64,000 bases of DNA from Cetorhinus maximus (GCF_964194155.1 NC_135888.1:15004001-15068000); one strand, 5' to 3'. Counted from the stretch's first letter, positions 1-61,984 are shown. A program made the numbers and translations. Notes: generated by a model from the letters alone, not told the origin.

Positions 1-178
1 CCTTAAGCATCTGTGTCATGTACTGGAATACATTCTGCTGAATAGCAGTGCTTCCCAAGCGCCTAATTACATGAGTTGATTCATCCAGGTTCAACGTATG
101 ACGCAAAAGAGCCCAAGACAGCAGCACCGGTGCATGATGCGATATGTCCCCTAACGTCAGCAGCAACTTGTCCATCTC
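1..178 (-). CDS. NUP188: NUP188 exon 11, truncated by window edge (EMDKLLLTLGDISHHAPVLLSWALLRHTLN...)
   Basis: cttgcag acceptor at 179-181; matches HHAPVLLAWALLRHTLN. Confidence 0.93.
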
Positions 179-1080
179 CTGCAAGGGAGAGATAAATTTC
201 ATAGAAAATTTGAATCTCACTAATTATAGAAAGTGAGATTAAAAGGTCCTTCTGTAAAGATGGCACGACTGACACAGAACTCGAAATAACTAAATACTGA
301 ATTTGTTGGCTCATATCAGATACAATTTACAGCACATACAAGAATCAGGTCAATGAAAATCAGTCCACTGTTAACTAGTTTTCAATCATTGCGAAATCTG
401 GGGCACTCGGTGCAGAATACTCTTTACACCTTTCAAAACAACTACTGCTCTATCATGTAACATCCTCAAACACAATAGAAAGAAAAACAAAACAAAACAA
501 GAAACACAATCACAGAGTGTTTCAGGACAAATGAATAGACAATGCATTTGTGCATCTCTAGTAAAATGTTCAATCACAATCCATAGGATTTCCACCTTGT
601 TCTCAACCAAAAGGTGAGCAAACAAAGCTTCTGCTTTTAAACCTAAATAATTGAACAATTGTTAATTCTAGTGCAGTTTGGTCATCTTAAGAGAGGTATG
701 GTGGGGAAACCAATTGATCATTTCAGGATTAGAGCAAAATGCTACTACTGTAAAAGATTTTAAAAAATACCTAAAATATCTCATTAAGGCATACTCAGAC
801 AAGGACAAGGCAAAATTATTGCGATACACAAAATCAACAGGAGGCATTTGCAGCAGACAAACCAACTTTTATTGCTCAATTATCCAAATGAAAGTCAAAC
901 TCTCAAATTCCAGTTTCATAATGTTAACCTGTAGTCTGCAAACGGTTACAACAAACAAAGCCATGATGGCCCTGAATTAATCATACTGACAAAAGATTAT
1001 TTTGCTGCTCCACTCTAGTCCTCTCCCATTACACTGCACCCAACATGTAGCATTTCAGTGATTAAGGAAGAAAAGGTTAC

Positions 1081-6259: not shown

Positions 6260-7507
6260 GAGGAGCACTTATGGGTCATAGAGTCTGGTGAACTAGCTGT
6301 ACACCTGATGGCCTACAAAGCATGAAGAGGAGAGGAGAGCGCGACTGAGGCTCCTGGCTGCACAGACGCAGGAGCAGCAGCCTTAGGAAGAAGGGGTGGC
6401 CAGGGCTCCCGCACGCGCCGCCCAAGGGGCACAGCGAGCCGTTGCTGGTCAGCACCCAGTAACACCCAGGGTCTATAGACGCTGCCTTTCACCTTGCAGA
6501 TGACCGAGAACCCGTGTCGCCGAATGCTGCGCATGTCTAGGGAACTGGTCGCTCACACCTGCCATTTACTGCAGGATTTGGCACCACAGGGACATGGAGG
6601 GCATCCACTACCAATGGCTGTGAAAGTGACTGCAGTGCTCAGTTTCTATGCCAGTGGCTCCTTTCAGGACTCCACAGGTGACATCTGTGGGATCTCTCAA
6701 GTCTCCACCCAAAAATGCAGCCATGAGGTCACGGATGCTACGACGGCACGCAACTTTGTTCGTTTTGCCCGGGACCAGGACAGCCAGGACGCAAGAGCGA
6801 TTGGATTCTCCCAGATCTCAGGTTTCCCACAGGCACAAGGTACGATTGACTGCACTCATGTGGCGCTCAGATCTCCATCGCAACACACGATGGACTACAT
6901 CAATCGCAAGGACTTCCATTCCCTGAATGAGCAGCTGGTGTGCGAACACCAGAAATGCATTCGGCAGGCGTGTGCACAGTTTCCAGGGAGTGTGCACGAC
7001 GCCTACATCCTCAGTTGGTCACAGGTCCCTAGTGTCTTCAAGGTCCATAGAGGCTACAGGGATGGCTCCTCGGGGACAAGGGGGCCGTGGTTGATGACGC
7101 CCGTTAGGTGGCCTCGGACTGCAGCAGAGTGACAGTATATTGAGTCTCAAGCTGCAGCTCACAACTAGGTGGAGCAGACCATCGGGATGCTGAAGATGAG
7201 GTTCCAGTGCCTGGACCGGTCTGGTGGAGCCCTACAACACAGTTCGCAGAGGGTGTCTCGCATCGTTGTCATCTGCTGCGCCCTTTACAACCTGGCGCTC
7301 CAATGAGACGACAAGCTAGCTGAGAAGGAGATGGAGGAGCTGCACGTCTCCTGCGATGAGGAGGATGCCAACAGCGATAAGGCTGAGGAGGTCCTCTGAG
7401 GCGGCGATGACAGGGACGAGGCCCTCGCACTAGCTAACCGAGGCAGGCGCGCTCAGGAGGCCCTCATAGCTGCTAGATTTGTGAAGGATGATGACAGCAC
7501 GCAGTGA
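6260..7507 (+). pseudogene. Harbinger (HARBI1-like DDE) transposase, frameshifted with stops
   Basis: GFPQAQGTIDCTHV, YINRKDFHSLN.QLVC, FPGSVHDAYIL, then in another frame VEQTIGMLKMRFQCLD; acceptor at 6259. Confidence 0.9.
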
Positions 7508-11227: not shown

Positions 11228-11520
11228 CTATAGAATAAATCAATATTAATAGCTCATCAGTTGTTATAATTGACATACAGTATAACCAATAATAATTTTG
11301 TGCTATTCAGTTACCATCATTGATTTTCTGTGAAACCGAAGTACACAATGAGCAATATGTACCAATTCATTACATACTTATCAACAGTGCAATATAGAAA
11401 GTAATTCAACTTTTAGCTCTAAATAGTAGTAGGTGCCATAACAATTCCCAACAACTTTTCACTAAGCTGTGCAGTTTAAATATCATGTGAATAGTCCATT
11501 TCTGCATTAATTCAACTCAC

Positions 11521-11613
11521 CCTGTAAGGGTGTCGTTCATCCTGAAAATACGTGAGTAGGTATAGAACACAGCGTAATGTGTACAGTCTTTCCTCATAAT
11601 AGTATTCTGCAAT
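11521..11613 (-). CDS. NUP188: NUP188 exon 7 (IAEYYYEERLYTLRCVLYLLTYFQDERHPYR)
   Basis: ctcag|...|gtgagt, 93 nt. Confidence 0.95.
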
Positions 11614-12782
11614 CTGAGCACAGGAAGACAAGAAATACAGAATTTCAAGAAAAACACACAAAATTGGAAAATAAGTTGCAATAATTACCAGCCAATTTCA
11701 CACTGAACAAAAGAATTAAGTTTTATATTTTTGAGTGCAGTTGACATTTTTTTCCTGTTACAATGTCACCTCCCACTGACACAAATTCATTGATGGACTA
11801 AACGATCCAAGTCACATTGCACAGTCAACGGGTCAGGCAAAATGGCAAATTTTTTCCACAGTCAAGATAAATGACTTTACATAAGTTCTGGTGGCTTGGC
11901 TTTTGTAATTCTGCCCCAAAGAATGAACAGAAGCCATCACGCCCCTGGCAGATCAATTAAAGCCATGGCAACAGTGAAAACCACAACCCTCTGGACTGTT
12001 TATTAGAAAATACACTCACCAGAGTTAAAGGCGGCTATTACATCAAAGAAAAAAAAAGCACTGAAAACATCTATTTCCCTAGTACCACCCAGTTTCTGAG
12101 CTGAAAGCAATATATAAAGCGGTATTTAATTGTCTATTTCAGATAACTGCACATCAGACCACAGTGACCATACATTGCTTTTGCATTCATTTCCAGTTTG
12201 CTATATGACATCAAGTACAATTTCTCCCATTTCAGTACTTAAAATTAGGAAAGACAGAGTGGATTGATGTCATCCCACATCACAATGGTCTGAAACGAGA
12301 TCAAAAAACAGTTCTGCTTAGAAAACTCCCAAATTGAGAGTCAAGTACTTGAGAATTGAACAGTAAAAAAATAAACAAACAAGGTGTTAAATTCAATTTT
12401 TAAACATAAGTGCATGTGCTAGGGAAATAAAAAACTGAAGAATAACTTGACAGTCAGGGACACATTTCTTTAAATGCTTTGTTTTTTTTTAATCTTTCAA
12501 ATTAAGATCTTAGGTTCTGCCTTAACCTCTTCCATTTAAGTGTCTCCTGCATGCAATCAGGAGACATGAACCTTTAATCCAACAGCAACTGTCCCTCTTT
12601 TACCTCCCCGTTGTGTGTAGTCACAACTTCCATTCAGTCTTCCCCGCAGCAGCCCGACAGATTGGGAACTCAGTGGGGTTTGTGAGGAGGCAGAGATCAA
12701 ATTGGCATTCTTCATTACCACAGCCCTACCTGCTGGCTGCAGACGGGTGCTGTACTTTTTATGTTTAAACATAACCATATAC

Positions 12783-25597: not shown

Positions 25598-27169
25598 ATG
25601 TTGAAAAATCCTGTCTTTGTGGAGTCTTGCATTGTTTTCATCATCGTATTGTCTGTCCACGCTGTGATCTGGAACACCTTTTCCTGGTGCACACTTGCTT
25701 TGGCGATTCAGGCTTTTTATGTTCAGCACAAGTGGGACCGGCTACTGAAGTCTGGAAATGCAGTTTTTCAATATAGAACGGCCTTTAGTAGTGGCCTGCT
25801 GCCGGCCAGCGTGGTTTTGCCTCTGCTAGGAACCGTGTTAAAGGAGCAGTGGGAAACGGTCGGAAATGTACAGTTTGAACGATTCTGCATTGTGTGTTCG
25901 GCTGCGGGAATGGCCATTGCTCTGTTCATCTCATTGCTGGGTTTGGGCCTCACAAAGCCACTGCCCACCAATACCAGCGTTGTGTACGGTTTTGCAACCA
26001 GCGCCATAATATATGGTCTTAAGCACACTCTTTCTGTTTCCGAGGTCATAGAAATCCTGGAGGTGTTATTGATTTTTGTCTATCTTTCTCTCATTGTCCT
26101 TTATATTATGCCACGGAGCTTCACCCCAGGAGAAGTTATGTTGTTCTTGTCAGGTTTGAGCATAGTCACCAACCAGCTGATTAAACGTTCTTTGACTTTC
26201 GGAGATGGTGGATATGATCCACTTGCATCATTCCTCTTGGTGACTGTGGTTGGGACGGCCCTTCTGGGATTGGTTTTCACTATTTTGTACTGCTTCATGG
26301 ACTCTAAGACCTGGGCTTCATCGCTGATTTTCCATGTGACGGCAGTCATTTTTGGATTGGGAATCATGGTGCCCTGGTTCTACCGACTGACCAGGAACCA
26401 TCTTTTTGCTTGGCTTCTCAACTTCCTCACATCCACCAGAACCAGGATCTACCTACTGAGCTACTGGATCACACTGGCATTTCTTGCTTCACTCATTGTC
26501 TTTCATCAGAACAGTAAGCAATCATCTGAATCGAAAGAGTACAAAGCTTCCACAGCTATGCGGAAAAGCTTCCATATCATTATAGTAGCAACCTACGTCC
26601 CAGGCCTCATCTATGATCGTCCGTTACTCTATATTGCTGCTGTGGTTTGCTTTGCTGCGTTTGTGGTGTTGGAATATATAAGGCATTTTAAGATTAAACC
26701 ACTTGGAATGATATTGAGACCAATGCTGGCCCTGTTTCTTGATGACCGTGATAGTGGTCCTTTGATCCTGACGCACATTTACCTGCTGCTAGGACTGACC
26801 CTGCCTGTATGGCTGTTCCCCGGAGTGTTTGCCCCAAAAAGCTCTTTTCCGGGGGAGGTAGCACTAGCTCCCTATGCTGGAGTCCTGGCCGTGGGGATTG
26901 GCGACGCCATGGCCTCTGCTATTGGAAGCACAATGGGAGAAGTTAGGTGGCCTGGAACGAAAAAGACCTTTGAAGGAACAGCAACCTCTGTCTTTGCCCA
27001 GATCATTGCTGTTGCTTTGATTCTCATCTTTGATAAAACAGTGAGCCTAAATGGCAGCTACACCTGGATTATGGGATCTATTGTTCTAGTCTCCCTGCTA
27101 GAAGCTTACACTGATCAAATAGACAATCTTCTATTGCCTTTGTATCTTTTCCTTATGCTGATGGTTTGA
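25598..27169 (+). CDS. DOLK: Dolichol kinase, 523 aa, single coding exon
   Basis: Multi-TM ORF; [50 protein letters not shown] motifs; synteny with NUP188 and PHYHD1. Confidence 0.98.
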
Positions 27170-37961: not shown

Positions 37962-38213
<252 letters not shown>

Positions 38214-52313: not shown

Positions 52314-52986
52314 AAAGGGAAGTAAAAATGTGATGAAATTTACACTGTTTAAGGGGAGTGGAGCAGGTGAAGTAGACTGAAAATAGGGTAAAAGGTGAGG
52401 CTATAACAATGAATAAAAATGAAAATAGATAAAAAGTAAGTGGATAAAAAAATAAAAATGGATATAGAAAGAAGGGGGTGAGGATGGAGGAGAGAGTTCA
52501 TGATCTGAAACTGTTGAACTCAGAAGGCTGAAAGTACCGGAAGATGAGATGCTGTTCCTCCAGTTTGCGTTGAGCTTCACTGGAACATTGCAGCAGGCCA
52601 AGGACGGACATGTGGGCATGAAAGCAGGGTGGTGTGTTGAAATGGCAAGCGACAGGAAGGTCTGGGTCATGCTTGCAGACAGACCAAAGACGTTCCGCAA
52701 AGCAGTCACTTGGTCTGAATTTGGTATCTCCAGTGTAGAGGAGACCACATTGGGAGCAGCGAATGCAGGTTAAATTGAAGGAGGTGCAAGTGAAATGCTG
52801 CTTCACCTGAAAGGAGTGCTTGGGCCCTTGGTTGGTGAGGAGAGGGGAAGTAAAGGGGCAAGTGTTACACCTTCTGTGGTTGCATGGGAAGGTGCCGTGG
52901 GAGGGGGTTGAGGTGTAGGGGGTGATGGAGGAGTGAGGAGTGGACCAGGGTGTTTCAGAGGAAATGGTCCCTACGAAATGCTGACA

Positions 52987-53071
52987 GGGGGGTGGGGGGT
53001 GGGGGGGTGGGGGGGGGTGGGGGGGTGGGGGGGTGGGGGGGGTGGGGGGGTGGGGGGGGGGGGTGGGGGGG
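52987..53071 (+). repeat. (G)nT G-rich tract inside the Penelope ORF
   Basis: About 85 nt of G runs separated by single T, flanked by direct repeat TGCTGACAGG. Confidence 0.9.
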
Positions 53072-55187
53072 TGCTGACAGGAAGATGTGTTTGGTGGTGG
53101 CATCATGCTGGAGTTGGCAGAAATGGTGGAGGATGATCCTTTGAATGTGGAGGCTGGTGGGGTGAAAAGTGAGGACAAGGGGGGCCCTGTCATGGTTCTG
53201 GGAGGGAGAGGAAGGTGTGAGGGCGGATGCGCGGGAGATGGGCCGGACACGGTTGAGGGCTCTGTCAACCACAGTGGGTGGAAAACCTTGGTTAAGGAAG
53301 AAGGAAGACATGTCAGAAGCGCCATTTTGGAAAGTGGCATCATCAGAACAGATGCGATGGAGGCGAAGGAACTGAGAGAATGGGATGGAGTCCTTCCAGG
53401 AAGCAGGGCATGAGGAGCTATAGTCAAGGTAGCTGTAGGAGTCAGTGGACATGTAATGAATATTGGTGGACAGTCTATCATCAGAAATTGAGACAGAGAG
53501 GTTAAGGAAGGGAAGGGAAGTGTCGGAGATGGAGCATGTGAAGGTGATGGAGGGGTGGAAATTGGAAGCAAAATTGGTCAATTTTCTAGGTCCAGATGAA
53601 AGCATGAAGTGGCACCAAAACAGTCATTGATGTACCGAAAAAAGAGTTGTGGGAGGGGGCCCGAGTAGAACTGGAACAAGGAGCGTTCCACATACCCCAT
53701 AAAGACACAGGCATAACTGGGGCCCATGCGGGTACCCATAGCCACACCTTTTATTTGGAGGAAGTGAGGCAAGTTTAAGGAGACATTGTTCAGTGAGAGA
53801 ACAAGTTCAGCCAGATGGAGGAGAGCGGTGGTGGATGGGGATTGTTCCGGCCTCTGTACAAGGAAAAAGCGGAGAGCCCTCAGACTATCCTAATGGGGGA
53901 TGGAGGTGTGGAGGGATTAGATGTCAATGGTGAAGAGGGGATGGTTAGGGCCAGGGAACTGGAAATTGTTGATATGACGTAGGGCATCAGAAGAATCGTG
54001 GATGAAGGTGGGAAGAGACTGGATAAGGGGAGAGAGAACAGAGTCAAGATAGGAAGAAATGAGTTCCATGGGGCAGGAACAGATTGACACAATCGGTGTA
54101 CCGGGACAGTCCTGTTTGTGGATTTTGGGGAGGAGGTAGAAGCGGGCTGCCCGGCATTGGGAGACTATGAGGTTGGAAGCTGTGGAGGGAAGATCTCAGA
54201 GGAGATGAGGTCAGTAACAGTCCTGGAAACAATGGCTTGATGTTCGGTGGCGGGGTCATGGTCCAGGGGGAGGTAGGAGGAAGTGTCTGAGAGTTGGCGC
54301 TCAGCCTCTGCGAGTTAGAGGTCAGTACTCCAGATAACAACAGGACCACCCTTGTTGGCAGGTTTGATGACAAAGTCAGGGTTGGACCCGAGAGAACGGA
54401 GTGCGGCAAGTTCAGAAGGAGACAGGTTAGAGTTGGTGAGAGGAGCAGAGAAATTGAGATGGCTGATGTCATGTTGACAGTTCTCAATGGAAAGATTAAG
54501 AGTAGGTAAGAGGCCAGAGGGAGGGGTCCAGATGGACGGAGAATACTGGAGACGGGTGAAAGGATCCATTGAACAGGGGGAGCCTCCTGCCCAAAGAAGT
54601 GAGCATAGAAACGAAGGCAGCAGAAGAAGAGTTCAGCATCATGCAGAGATCGAAATTCATTGAGGAGGGGGCGTAAGGGTATGAAACTGAGTCCTTTGCT
54701 GAGTACTGAATGTTCAGCATCAGAGAGGGGAAGGTCAGGGGGTATGGTGAATACACAGCAAGGGCTGGGATTAGAAGACGGGATGGGGTCAGGGGGATGG
54801 GAAGGGGTGGAAGGTCCTGGATGAGCGTGGTATCAATGAGTTGTTGGAGCTTGCGTTCCTTAGCACCTGAAAGAAAGGGACAAAGTTTCTTGTTAAGGCG
54901 TCGGATGAGACGAAGAATAAAATGAAACTGGGGACAAGGACAGCTTTGAGATAGGGTGAGATAGGGTGGAGGGAGAGGTCGAGTGTGTTCATATGGCGGC
55001 GCATGGCACTGAGTATGGATCTCAGGATGCGGCGAGAACAGCAGTCCAAGGAGCGTTGTATGTCCTGGAGATACCTGTAATCCTGTGTGGGTTCAAAACA
55101 TGAGGGATGGAACTTCAGTTGGAATCCACGTGGGGTAAGTCAGAGATGGACACAGTCACTGAGGAAGGAAATACGGCTGCGAAAGCG

Positions 55188-55353
55188 AGTTTTGGAAAAC
55201 ATCTTGTCAAACACCAGGAGGGAAATGGAAAGCAATGAAGGTGAACAGGGCAAAAGAGACAAATGGAAATCCTGTCAGAAATCTCTTTTGCCCTGTTCCC
55301 CTCCATTGCTTTCCATTTCCCAGCTGGTGTTTGACAAGGTGTTTACCAAAACT
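55188..55353. repeat. Inverted repeat (72-bp arms) at the Penelope 5' end
   Basis: 55188-55259 vs revcomp 55282-55353, 6 mismatches by hand count. Confidence 0.92.
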
Positions 55354-55525
55354 TGTGTTGGTGAAGTATAAGAGCCAATATAAACCTCAGTGAAAAGAAA
55401 GCCTAACCAACAAAGGATAACCATTAAAATATGATAATACTAGGCAGTAGGAGAAGTATGTGCCATTGTTTCATTCAAAATCTATCTAAATAATATGATA
55501 GGTGCATTTAGTTCAAATTGGTTGC

Positions 55526-55531
55526 TTTATT
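55526..55531 (-). terminator. Candidate polyadenylation signal of the LRRC8 gene
   Basis: AATAAA on minus about 70 nt after the stop. Confidence 0.45.
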
Positions 55532-55602
55532 TCCTTACATCCAGCATCTTTTTTCATGAGACATCAACTTCTTTGGGACTAAACTACTGACGTCTGATGC
55601 TG

Positions 55603-58017
55603 TTAGATCTGACCACCACCCATCTTTTCCCGTATTTCTAAAGGAAGTGACTCAACAACATAGTGTTCTATCACAAGTCCACTAAGCCTCAGCATTGGGC
55701 ATTGCCCTATTTCCACAGGGAGTTTTTCCAAGAGGTTTCCTTGAAGTTCCAGCTGAGATAGTTGGATGAGCTTTGCAATCTTCCCACTGACGGATGAGAT
55801 TAAGTTATTGCTTAGCTTCAGAGTCATGAGCTTGATACATTTGAAAAGCTGATCTGGTAGAGTGTCTATTTTATTGTAACCCAAATCCAAATAATACAGG
55901 TTTTTGAGGTTCCCAACATCTATTGGAATTACAGAAATGTTGTTGCTGTGTATGTCCAAATAATGCAGTTTATCAATAGTGAAAAGGACTTTTGGTAAAA
56001 CCTCAATCTGGTTGTTTGATAAGTAAAGATACTCAAGCTTCTTGATTGAATTAATAGTTGAAGGGATGGTCTTGATTATGTTGAACCAGAACTTCAAACA
56101 GGTTAAGTTTTGCAGATATTGCAAGTTGGAAATTTCTTCAATTTTGGTAAGATTGTTACCTTTAAGGTCCAAGACATGAAGTTTGGATAAAGCATAAGTG
56201 GCACTTGGGATTTTATCCAGTTCACAGTTGTGAAGTTCAATTTGAGTCAGATTTACCATTTTCTTTAAGATACTCAGGCTCGAGAGCTTGGTCTTATCAT
56301 TATGAATGCAAAGTTTGATCAAGTGGAATGCAACGTCGATGATAGTGGAGGGTATTTTAGAAAGACTTGTTTTTAGATAAAGGACTTTCAGAGAGCGAAG
56401 ACCCTTCATGGTTTCCAGTTCCAGAGCTTTTTTCTCAATGGCCAGCATTCCAGTTAGGTACAGCTCTTTCAGCTGGATCAGTTTGTAGATCCAATCGGGG
56501 ATTTCATCACGGCTCACATATTTAACTCCCACTTTCTTCAGTTGATTTCTCAGCCACATCAAAGCTGATGGTGTAACTTCGGTCACACAGTGTGAGAGCC
56601 AGATTTCTTCCAAGTGCTCAAGTTGGGTTATTTTGTTAGATATTTTAACATTGCTACAAAGCTCCAGCCTTAAGACCTGTAGGTCAGTAACTTCATAGAC
56701 AGATTCAGGAATTCCTGATAGCATGAAGAGGTACAACTCAAGCTGATCCTTCTTAGTTTTTTTTACATGTTGCTTCACCTTCTCCACAGTCCAATCATTA
56801 TTTAAACTTAATAATTTTAATTTTTGTTCACTCACTTCTGAGAGGAAGACTGTAAGACGTTTGCAATACAGAGTGTCATACTGATCAATCAAATGCAACA
56901 AGAAGGCAAAATCATTTCTTCCATCAGGGATATCACCAAACAGGCTTTCGCCTCGTTTCTCAAAGGAGTATATTTTCAGAGGTTTTCTGAAAACCCAACA
57001 TATTGTGTGGATGCCGAGTATCCAATAGATAATCACCAAACCCAGATACAGTAGGGCCAATTTCCCGATGAAACGAGCAGTGCTATAAGTACAATCAAAA
57101 GTCTTGTAAAAAACCAATTTTAGTGCATTAGGTTCACATAAATTATTAAAGTCGACAACATAAATATAGGCTGGAAAGTAACCAATAATAATTAAACAAT
57201 GTATTGTTTTGAACAATGTTTGGCCAGCATATAATTTATAGATTGTATCTTTCTCTTCAACATGGAATCTGAATTTCCTTACTTTCTCAAACAAAGCTTT
57301 GGCTTGCTCTGCATCCTTCTTGTCCATGGTTGAGGCAGGTACTGTCACGTTTGAGTGAATACGTGTGGGAAGTTTAATAGTTGATGTATCTCCTATAGTA
57401 CTGATGGTCTCAGTGTCATTTTCAGTGGTCTTTGGTGATGCCAAGGCTTCTTCCTGTTCACTGGCATCTACACAGATTGCTGTAGATAGTGCCTTGGATG
57501 TCCATGGTGACTGAAAACACTTTTGAAGGATGTCAAGAAATTGTTGCAATTTGGAGCTTGTTTTAGGATATGTGAAACAGAAGTTACTGCAGGTAATCAG
57601 GACAACTGTGTGGAATAAAATTAGATAAGAGAAGAACCTAGTAAACCAGGGAATTTGAGTATAACACATTTGATTGATATACCAGTACTGCCAAACGTAT
57701 AGCTTTGTAACCATCCCTTGGCGGACAGAAGGAAATGTATCTGGATTCATAAGTACTTCTGGATTGTCACTGATATCAGACATTCCTGGAGTATCTTGCA
57801 TGGGTGCACTAATCTCACTGTGTGCCCTTCCATTATTTTTGGGATGTGGCAAACAGAAAGTCTCATCCATGTAAAGCTGAATGCTGCAGCCAAAGATAGC
57901 CAACAACAACATAATAATAGTCAGGTAATCCATGAAGGTGTCCCACCAAGGTTTGAAGACCTTGTAGGCAGGTTGCTTATTGTCTTCCAAAATTGAAATA
58001 TTGCTGATCGAAAACAT
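55603..58017 (-). CDS. LRRC8-family volume-regulated anion channel subunit, 804 aa, divergent LRRC8D-like paralog; single coding exon
   Basis: KPWWD, INQMCY, PWT, EQAKALFEKV, NDFAF, DQYD motifs, four TM segments and C-terminal LRRs; acceptor tttattttcag|GT ATG TTT defines the start at 58017 (the 55 extra residues of the listed ORF are intron/SINE). Confidence 0.95.
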   Translation of the reverse strand: MFSISNISILEDNKQPAYKVFKPWWDTFMDYLTIIMLLLAIFGCSIQLYMDETFCLPHPKNNGRAHSEISAPMQDTPGMSDISDNPEVLMNPDTFPSVRQGMVTKLYVWQYWYINQMCYTQIPWFTRFFSYLILFHTVVLITCSNFCFTYPKTSSKLQQFLDILQKCFQSPWTSKALSTAICVDASEQEEALASPKTTENDTETISTIGDTSTIKLPTRIHSNVTVPASTMDKKDAEQAKALFEKVRKFRFHVEEKDTIYKLYAGQTLFKTIHCLIIIGYFPAYIYVVDFNNLCEPNALKLVFYKTFDCTYSTARFIGKLALLYLGLVIIYWILGIHTICWVFRKPLKIYSFEKRGESLFGDIPDGRNDFAFLLHLIDQYDTLYCKRLTVFLSEVSEQKLKLLSLNNDWTVEKVKQHVKKTKKDQLELYLFMLSGIPESVYEVTDLQVLRLELCSNVKISNKITQLEHLEEIWLSHCVTEVTPSALMWLRNQLKKVGVKYVSRDEIPDWIYKLIQLKELYLTGMLAIEKKALELETMKGLRSLKVLYLKTSLSKIPSTIIDVAFHLIKLCIHNDKTKLSSLSILKKMVNLTQIELHNCELDKIPSATYALSKLHVLDLKGNNLTKIEEISNLQYLQNLTCLKFWFNIIKTIPSTINSIKKLEYLYLSNNQIEVLPKVLFTIDKLHYLDIHSNNISVIPIDVGNLKNLYYLDLGYNKIDTLPDQLFKCIKLMTLKLSNNLISSVSGKIAKLIQLSQLELQGNLLEKLPVEIGQCPMLRLSGLVIEHYVVESLPLEIREKMGGGQI

Positions 58018-58084
58018 ACCTGAAAATAAATGCAAAAATTTAAAGTGATATTTGAAACTTACATTTTGTAGACACTTAGGGGAA

Positions 58085-61293: not shown

Positions 61294-61984
61294 CATAACT
61301 CTTGCCAGAAAGGGGGATATTGAAGTGAGAATGGGACAGAGTCAGCTGTGATATCTTGAATAGAAGAATGCAAAAATGTGTAAAAGCAATCGGGCTATGG
61401 TAAATGATCACACACAAGCAGTACAATGTATTTACTAGTTACATGTAGAAACAACAACTTATGAGTACAGAATGAGAATATTTTTCAAAGGCAGAGACCA
61501 ATTAGTAAAGAGAGAAATAACTAGATAGGAAACAAATATTTTTACTTACTCAAGACGGGATTTTGGACTGGACTAAATATAAATAGATAGCTTTCTCAGT
61601 AAACATCAGAATTTGTATTTTACAACTTATAAAGATAATATAAAATTATTTAAAATTGCAAAATTAATTATTTGTTCAAACTGATTTAAAAATTAACTGA
61701 CATCTGCCTGAGAAATATTGATGAAGTTCTAACAAATAGATTTAGAATGTTTCTATTGATGATACTGAATTTTGAACTTTTGATTGTCTTCAATATTCCA
61801 ATTCTTCTGCATTCATTCAAACTCTTGATGTCACAAAAACTGATAGGCATGACCTATCCTGGAGCTGGGCTGTCATCCATTCTTTGAATATATGAATGTC
61901 TTGAGCTTAGCACATGACCTTCACAGTTACAGCTATCCTATTTCAAAGTGTCATATCTTGTTCAATGTTTAAAATAACCCTAAA

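Follow-up and report, generated by a model that had tools for sequence, protein, structure and literature searches.

X1, an intact LRRC8 gene in the 64,000-nucleotide stretch of the Cetorhinus maximus genome analysed here (the window), probably represents an unnamed subfamily of the LRRC8D lineage, descended from the LRRC8D copy that the first of two genome duplications placed beside LRRC8A, and is predicted to encode an accessory subunit that would join LRRC8A in VRAC, the swelling-activated channel, and alter its selectivity. An initial annotation of this DNA had proposed a genome-duplication sister of LRRC8D at this position. Phylogenetic trees support this proposal, which is refined in two respects, namely that the duplication in question would be the first and that X1 is one of a tandem pair, the other member being referred to as X2.

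The X1 reading frame contains neither a premature stop nor a frameshift, and its product has the architecture of the LRRC8 family, with a Pannexin-like four-transmembrane domain at the start and cytosolic LRRs after it, in about 800 residues (Table 1). Pfam matches cover both parts, and in a PDB sequence search human LRRC8D is the best match (802 bits, compared to 737 for LRRC8A). The gene is intact and closer to LRRC8D than to LRRC8A, as had been proposed, and every motif previously named for it is found in the protein. Extracellular cysteines C55, C118, C294 and C309 align with the EL1 and EL2 cysteines of the family, and the Cys-to-Cys distance in EL1 (C55–C118) is 63, confirming that X1 lacks the very long EL1 of LRRC8D (87–99 aa). 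An AlphaFold2 model based on 108 sequences (mean pLDDT 81.9), superseding an earlier fold from 21 sequences in which the transmembrane part had a pLDDT of 63, exhibits four transmembrane helices, an EL1 helix beginning at residue 105 and an LRR arc. The Foldseek listing for this model consists entirely of LRRC8 chains, among which the top whole-chain TM-score is 0.72 (LRRC8D, 6m04_C), and the LRR domain aligns with isolated LRRC8A and LRRC8C LRR domains at TM-scores of 0.93–0.97 to the target.

Table 1. Features of X1 and its neighbourhood (window numbering unless a contig is given; C10 is the contig carrying the window)
Feature	Position	Strand	Basis and remarks
X1, LRRC8 D-lineage gene	55603..58017	-	one coding exon, 804 aa, ATG 58017 to stop 55603; Pfam, PDB match, trees
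X1 Pannexin-like pore domain, residues 1-339	57001..58017	-	Pfam Pannexin_like PF12534, E 5e-100; AlphaFold2; alignment
X1 EL1 helix tip, residues 107-111, predicted outer constriction	57685..57699	-	alignment, model
X1 residue 6 (Asn)	58000..58002	-	alignment
X1 cytosolic LRR domain, about residues 411-800	55618..56787	-	Pfam, model, TM-score
X1 splice-acceptor-like site	58020..58038	-	sequence; AG also in six paralogs
X1 AATAAA, candidate polyadenylation signal, 72 nt past stop	55526..55531	-	sequence
X2, tandem sister	C10:15069461-15071965 (window numbering 67965-65461)	-	834 aa, one coding exon
True LRRC8A	C10:15095248-15099803 (window numbering 95803-91248)	-	815 aa, two coding exons, Arg at filter
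PHYHD1-type (PhyH) exon, downstream neighbour	37962..38213	-	Pfam, above cut-off
Putative DOLK, a 523-aa membrane protein frame without introns	25598..27169	+	putative assignment
NUP188-like exon	11515..11697	-	Nup188_N, below Pfam cut-off, E 1.5e-3
Second NUP188-like exon	2..223	-	Nup188_N, below Pfam cut-off, E 4e-4

The description of X1 as a single-exon gene holds for its coding part only. A pyrimidine tract and an AG lie 2 nt ahead of the ATG, and an AG at 2–9 nt before the ATG recurs in the six other paralogs whose starts were inspected (X2, A, B, D, D2 and F1), suggesting a 5' untranslated exon and, most likely, an intron in the X1 5' UTR. None of the 15 splice joints listed out of 1829 leads onto this acceptor, and a covered piece upstream of X1 (61741–61881) has an edge without a canonical donor. 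Parts of the X1 frame are matched, at a depth of 2–7 and with 1–12% differences, by short contigs of possible RNA origin that belong to three runs in two studies, and a contig of a relative spans 55326–57732 of the X1 region with 57 substitutions and no gap. It is the long-term retention of an intact frame that provides the main sign of a presumably functional gene.

On the minus strand, genes are ordered LRRC8A, X2, X1 and PHYHD1, an arrangement established here for the Cetorhinus genome. A bona fide LRRC8A is found 33–38 kb upstream of X1 and on the same strand, past the right end of the window, so that X1 does lie downstream of LRRC8A, although not as its sole D-like neighbour since X2 sits between them. 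The PHYHD1-DOLK-NUP188 neighbourhood initially described is borne out to differing degrees. The PhyH exon scores above the Pfam cut-off, the two NUP188-like exons fall below it, and the 523-aa frame that we take to be DOLK had no match in Pfam, NCBIfam or PDB.

A six-frame search of the genome returned 17 matches that resolve into ten LRRC8 genes on three contigs. LRRC8A, X2 and X1 share the minus strand of C10, while C18 carries LRRC8B, LRRC8C and LRRC8D in tandem with an extra gene, F1 (the B model was used without its last exon), and C29 carries LRRC8E, a D-like gene (D2) 53 kb further on, and F2, 8 Mb away. The separate B-C-D cluster expected in this genome is thus present on C18, and its LRRC8D (C18:15805075) is 79% identical to a bat LRRC8D. 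Pairwise, X1 shares 47.6% identity with X2, 45.9% with LRRC8D, 43.4% with LRRC8A and 39–44% with the remaining paralogs.

Orthologs of X1, which the initial annotation had proposed to seek in shark, ray and chimaera genomes among others, were named from 14 cartilaginous fishes, including several shark orders as well as sawfish, manta, skate and Callorhinchus, and those of X2 from 13. The closest named relative of X1 among the matches listed is a white shark protein (96% identical), and identity is 76% to a skate, with TM1 100% identical, and 61% to Callorhinchus. The corresponding value for LRRC8D and Callorhinchus is 87%, indicating that X1 evolves much faster. X1 and X2 occur on contigs of identical size in 10 species, in five of which a protein scoring as canonical D is found on another contig, and their accessions are consecutive in Callorhinchus, Hemiscyllium and Chiloscyllium punctatum. 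X1 or X2 was the best match for 25 of 347 fetched proteins (at least 100 aa), comprising the two genes themselves, 19 named chondrichthyan proteins, two unnamed proteins with skate-like identity, and two weak matches (90 and 55 bits) that are distant proteins rather than orthologs.

A profile of X1 and X2 separates the pair from its relatives, members scoring 1200–1492 bits and the next unfused match, a canonical D, 1071 (among the best 120 of 863). Two high-scoring bony-vertebrate matches, in goby and snake, proved on reading their sequences to be fused models composed of D+D and E+D2-type parts. No bony-vertebrate ortholog of X1 or X2 appears in the ranked protein lists (best 120 of 681, 1005 and 863) or in one library of 50%-identity representatives. 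To judge by the ranked lists, both genes were apparently lost in bony vertebrates as a whole, a wider loss than the mammalian one first suggested.

Residues lining the predicted pore set X1 apart from other LRRC8 proteins. Its Tyr-Val-Trp occupies the positions of D102-R103-H104 in LRRC8A, with Val at the position of LRRC8D F143. Across X1 orthologs this filter residue is Val, Ile or Asn (Tyr in Callorhinchus), the D102 'lid' position is Tyr, Phe or His, with every other aligned paralog being acidic there, and the H104/Q position is Trp in 11 of 11. At the Glu-6 position Cetorhinus X1 has Asn, and seven of the nine X1 rows that include the N terminus have Asp. Altogether X1 replaces 11 family-conserved residues, including the D102 position; EL1 measures 58–67 aa across the X1 rows, and X2 retains a D-like filter. 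Glu-6 is also missing in newt F and lamprey proteins, and so does not define the whole LRRC8 family; it is described as conserved in human LRRC8A–E (PMC6120214).

These features are best appreciated against the known behaviour of VRAC subunits. LRRC8A partners place Leu or Phe at R103, the outer constriction, thereby setting the substrate range (PMC12182595, PMC13586245, PMC7229184), and no mammalian subunit but LRRC8A gets to the surface unaided, the others requiring LRRC8A (PMC12182595). By analogy, the replacement of E6, D102 and H104/Q makes it likely that X1 is an accessory VRAC subunit that assembles with LRRC8A and tunes its permeation. Like LRRC8B–E, it would need LRRC8A to reach the membrane, where, at the outer constriction, its small uncharged residue flanked by aromatics would stand in for part of the Arg103 side chains and loosen A packing, so that permeation would be less strictly anion-selective and would favour uncharged or bulky solutes. 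A complex prediction for the LRRC8A and X1 pore domains, run without alignments, returned a score of 0.01, which decides neither way.

With 11 conserved residues replaced, D102 among them, X1 could instead conduct poorly or act as an inhibitor, or it could form a channel alone or with X2, independent of LRRC8A, possibilities to which we assign a low but appreciable probability. All X1 orthologs replace E6, D102, H104/Q (by Trp) and positions 127, 147, 159 and 183, a ring of Trp residues could narrow the entrance, and the D102A mutation slowed LRRC8A function (bioRxiv 10.1101/331207). On the other hand, these replacements are maintained throughout the subfamily (Trp in 11 of 11), suggesting selection for a property, and Glu6 changes shifted halide selectivity only when introduced into both subunits and had little effect in one, while several N-terminal indels were likewise tolerated in one subunit (PMC6120214). 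A channel independent of LRRC8A also fits poorly with the mammalian rule that LRRC8A alone surfaces unaccompanied (PMC12182595).

As a predicted accessory subunit of LRRC8A, X1 is one candidate explanation for the unusual selectivity reported in skate VRAC, for which hepatocytes gave a Pcation/PCl of about 0.2 and a Pcholine/PCl of 0.55, compared to a ratio of 0.02–0.04 in most cells (Jackson 1996, as cited in PMC6363415). It is doubtful, however, that the ten genes amount to a ten-subunit VRAC, double the set of mammals, in which X1 is a purpose-built osmolyte subunit whose aromatic, uncharged pore entrance and missing Glu6 cause this cation and choline permeability and offer a route for methylamines and taurine. 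The related suggestion of an organic-osmolyte-type subunit, made when the gene was first described, finds no backing in the filter, since X1 does not keep the LRRC8D motif. Five extra LRRC8 genes compete for the skate role, and X1 is not singled out among them. In any event, its natural variation at E6, D102 and R103/F143, positions linked to VRAC permeation by mutagenesis, is maintained among cartilaginous fishes and makes X1 a ready reagent for the question of subunit selectivity.

The position of X1 within the family was examined using FastTree (52 rows, leaving out four fragmentary invertebrate rows and near-duplicates) and IQ-TREE LG+C20 (26 rows, leaving out long-branch rows and invertebrates). 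Both recover the topology ((X1,X2),(D,D2)), separate from A/B, C/E and F, so that X1 falls outside the LRRC8A clade and outside D, with IQ-TREE support of 100/100 for X1+X2, 99/98 for D+D2 and 100/100 for the D group versus A/B/C/E/F. Pore-only, LRR-only and Dayhoff-6 trees (30–31 rows, with hagfish, lamprey and amphibian sequences added) share this topology, support being 96, 99 and 97 for D+D2 and 100, 92 and 100 for X+D+D2, respectively. X has ten alignment columns in common with D/D2, compared to none with A, one with A/B, two with C/E and one with F, and twelve columns join X1 to X2. In its wide sense (D, D2, X1 and X2) the D lineage is thus a single clade with one coding exon and shared residues. 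Proteins of lungfish, gar, bowfin, perch and frog group with D2 and those of newt, frog and lamprey with F, hagfish and lamprey rows being placed within the A/B and F clades. Within both X1 and X2 Callorhinchus is the first branch, placing the tandem duplication before the chimaera–shark split.

Topology tests point in the same direction with varying force. Placement of X as sister to (D,D2) was the sole survivor of the AU test among 12 placements under LG+F+G4 and among seven under C20. Grouping of X1 with LRRC8A was rejected outright (p 1e-37 and 5e-49), X within D was rejected at p 7e-5 and 1e-3, and X with D or D2 at p 0.001–0.03, the weakest rejection being that of X+D (p-AU 0.0275, C20). 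In contrast, the SH test (C20) left X+D, X+D2 and X within D unrejected. With 0.54 changes per column in IQ-TREE LG+C20, the stem of X is long enough for attraction to the base of the D group to be possible.

A plausible course of events begins with an ancestral tandem array of A/B, C/E, D and F that would have been duplicated in two genome duplications and thinned by differential loss, C18 keeping B-C-D-F1, C29 keeping E-D2 and F2, and C10 keeping A and a D copy. The latter would have given rise to the X1/X2 tandem before the chimaera–shark split, to be lost eventually in bony vertebrates. The C/E, D/D2 and F1/F2 pairs each link C18 with C29, suggesting that these are the younger duplicates and that C10, with A and X, stems from the older round. 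The X split also predates the D/D2 split (in trees with no cyclostome D-type row), a timing that would favour the first genome duplication over the second.

Neighbouring gene families provide a further view of these contigs. Four BET-domain matches were found, on C10, C18, C22 and C29, of which the C10 and C29 members have BRD3 and BRD4, respectively, as best PDB match, and those on C18 and C22 are not separated by the PDB. BET genes are therefore present on all three LRRC8 contigs, and X1 lies in a segment paralogous to that of LRRC8D, as befits an LRRC8D ohnolog. AKAP95-family exons occur beside F1 on C18 and beside F2 on C29, and a search for the Notch NODP domain gave matches on C18, C22 and C29 and none on C10. 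SPOUT1-type exons were also seen on C10, 8.5 Mb off, and a genome profile search with PF10487 gave no match. In the human genome, segments 9q34, 1p22, 19p13 and 6p21 are paralogous. Human LRRC8A maps to chromosome 9 and the B-C-D tandem to chromosome 1 (table in PMC12182595), and the available text of PMC12284397 and PMC10013865 gives no pairing for the LRRC8 linkage group.

The same topology would fit equally well if X were a fifth lineage, a tandem D duplicate that predated the genome duplications and was kept beside LRRC8A, and hence not an ohnolog of LRRC8D. The presence of hagfish and lamprey proteins in the A/B and F clades indicates that tandem lineages are older than jawed vertebrates. 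This scenario nevertheless requires additional losses, of D on C10 and of X on C18 and C29, and no further LRRC8 remnant was detected in 144 kb of C10; we consider it improbable. Somewhat harder still to accept is a view in which X1 and X2 arose by duplication of LRRC8D or D2, evolved fast and were relocated beside LRRC8A in the cartilaginous-fish stem, with their basal placement a long-branch artefact. X is known only from Chondrichthyes among the matches listed and has a long stem, the SH test leaves the nested placements standing, and a one-exon coding sequence moves easily. Weighing against relocation are the AU rejection of those placements, the concurrence of three data treatments, the retained 5' acceptor, and the low odds that a relocated gene would by chance end up between LRRC8A and PHYHD1 with the orientation of the array and on a paralogous contig. 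A recent retrocopy can be set aside as well, considering the acceptor ahead of the ATG, at a position common to six paralogs, and the existence of orthologs as far away as Callorhinchus.

Finally, despite its location beside PHYHD1 and the 'LRRC8D-like' name given by RefSeq to its orthologs, there is virtually no prospect of X1 being a divergent LRRC8A or this genome's own LRRC8D, since the genome has its true LRRC8A 33 kb upstream and its true LRRC8D on C18 (43% and 46% identical, respectively), X1 neither groups with LRRC8A nor has its Arg103 or LRR-region intron, and nesting in LRRC8D is rejected by the AU test for a protein with a short EL1 and no F143. X1 is thus neither a member of the LRRC8A clade, nor the sole LRRC8D, nor a recent retrocopy, the three outcomes that would have contradicted the original proposal.

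Comparison with known systems places the D-lineage copy beside LRRC8A in context. LRRC8D (PDB 6m04, 9dx7, 9t5m) is its closest counterpart, being the top PDB sequence match and a member of the same clade, and sharing with X1 a one-exon coding sequence, ten diagnostic residues, an uncharged filter residue and four extracellular cysteines. Yet X1 is 46% identical to it, not orthologous, linked to LRRC8A and far faster-evolving, with Tyr-Val-Trp in place of the acidic-aromatic-Gln filter and Asn/Asp6 in place of Glu6. LRRC8A (SWELL1) has the same fold and is the tandem neighbour of X1 on the same strand, but at 43% identity it differs by its Arg103, second EL1 cysteine and intron in the LRR-coding part, all missing from X1. 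The teleost lrrc8da and lrrc8db are named extra D paralogs in fish; their position within gnathostome D makes them later duplicates with no relation to X1 and X2. Bmp16 and nanos1 paralogs follow the same evolutionary pattern, being ohnologs that cartilaginous fish retained and model species lost, although X1, unlike these, would be a subunit of a combinatorial pore, and its ancestral copy was duplicated again.

Abascal and Zardoya (2012) is reportedly the LRRC8 family phylogeny that reviews cite. In the literature searched, comprising few subscription papers and no supplements, no name, phylogeny or function was found for X1 or X2. Within the established LRRC8 family the two form a new subfamily, reached by a familiar route; a prior mention is possible, and their gene models are already in RefSeq. 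Reviews give five LRRC8 genes (PMC6363415, PMC12182595). The ten genes found here, with three unnamed subfamilies (X, D2 and F), suggest that mammals retain no more than part of an old tandem array of four lineages. Whether X1 matches an already named paralog, a question raised at the outset, has a divided answer. RefSeq models XP_041050411.1, XP_007900958.1, XP_060697209.1 and XP_048469345.1 are X1 orthologs (60–96% identity), but X1 and X2 orthologs are auto-named 'LRRC8D-like' or hypothetical, and in shark and fish annotations 'LRRC8D-like' covers four different genes, namely X1, X2, D2 and true D.

The tandem sister of X1 (the LRRC8D-lineage gene of this study), X2, lies outside the window, 7.4 kb upstream, and bears a C-terminal extension of 30 residues that is kept as far as Callorhinchus. 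The two genes also differ in the glycosylation sequons of the first extracellular loop, 2–4 in X2 versus 0–1 in X1, and in GC3 (0.64 versus 0.42). The pore-lining N terminus of X1 carries a one-residue insertion (residues 12–13, window 57979–57984), common only to the white-shark ortholog among the nine aligned sequences of X1 and its orthologs.

D2 is unnamed as a gene, its existing database label being 'LRRC8D(-like)'. Orthologs occur in lungfish (XP_043940464.1), gar, bowfin, perch and a frog, where the accession number is two apart from that of LRRC8E, together with a snake fragment. In F1 and F2 an intron is located 3' of TM1 and AKAP95-family genes adjoin both. The filter position (LRRC8A Arg103) is Arg in F1, as in LRRC8A. 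Relatives of this lineage are found in newts, lamprey and Discoglossus, the last carrying its relative and LRRC8D on contigs of equal size. Two sea anemones, Nematostella and Exaiptasia, also have LRRC8-like proteins (P0219, P0248), in contrast to the statement of PMC6363415 that LRRC8 genes have not been found among invertebrates.

Coordinates of LRRC8 paralogs (contigs C10, C18 and C29 of the source genome) and of repeat-related features (window)
Feature	Location	Strand	Description
X2	C10:15069461-15071965	minus	tandem sister of X1, 834 aa
F1	C18:15828855-15844950		fourth LRRC8 lineage
F2	C29:14400480-14420670		fourth LRRC8 lineage
D2	C29:6042362-6044860		LRRC8E-linked sister of LRRC8D
Inverted repeat	55188-55353		72 nt, 92% complementary
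DDE_Tnp_4 transposase fragment	6500-7132	+	E 1e-10
GC-skewed stretch	52400-55300		between X1 and PHYHD1; retroelement-like open frames

The inverted repeat, 250 bp past the X1 stop codon and embedded in sequence of high copy number in other sequencing runs, is probably a small mobile element. One open frame of the GC-skewed stretch had no match when scanned against Pfam, and this stretch is high-copy where covered by sequencing reads. The transposase fragment is flanked by NUP188-like exons.
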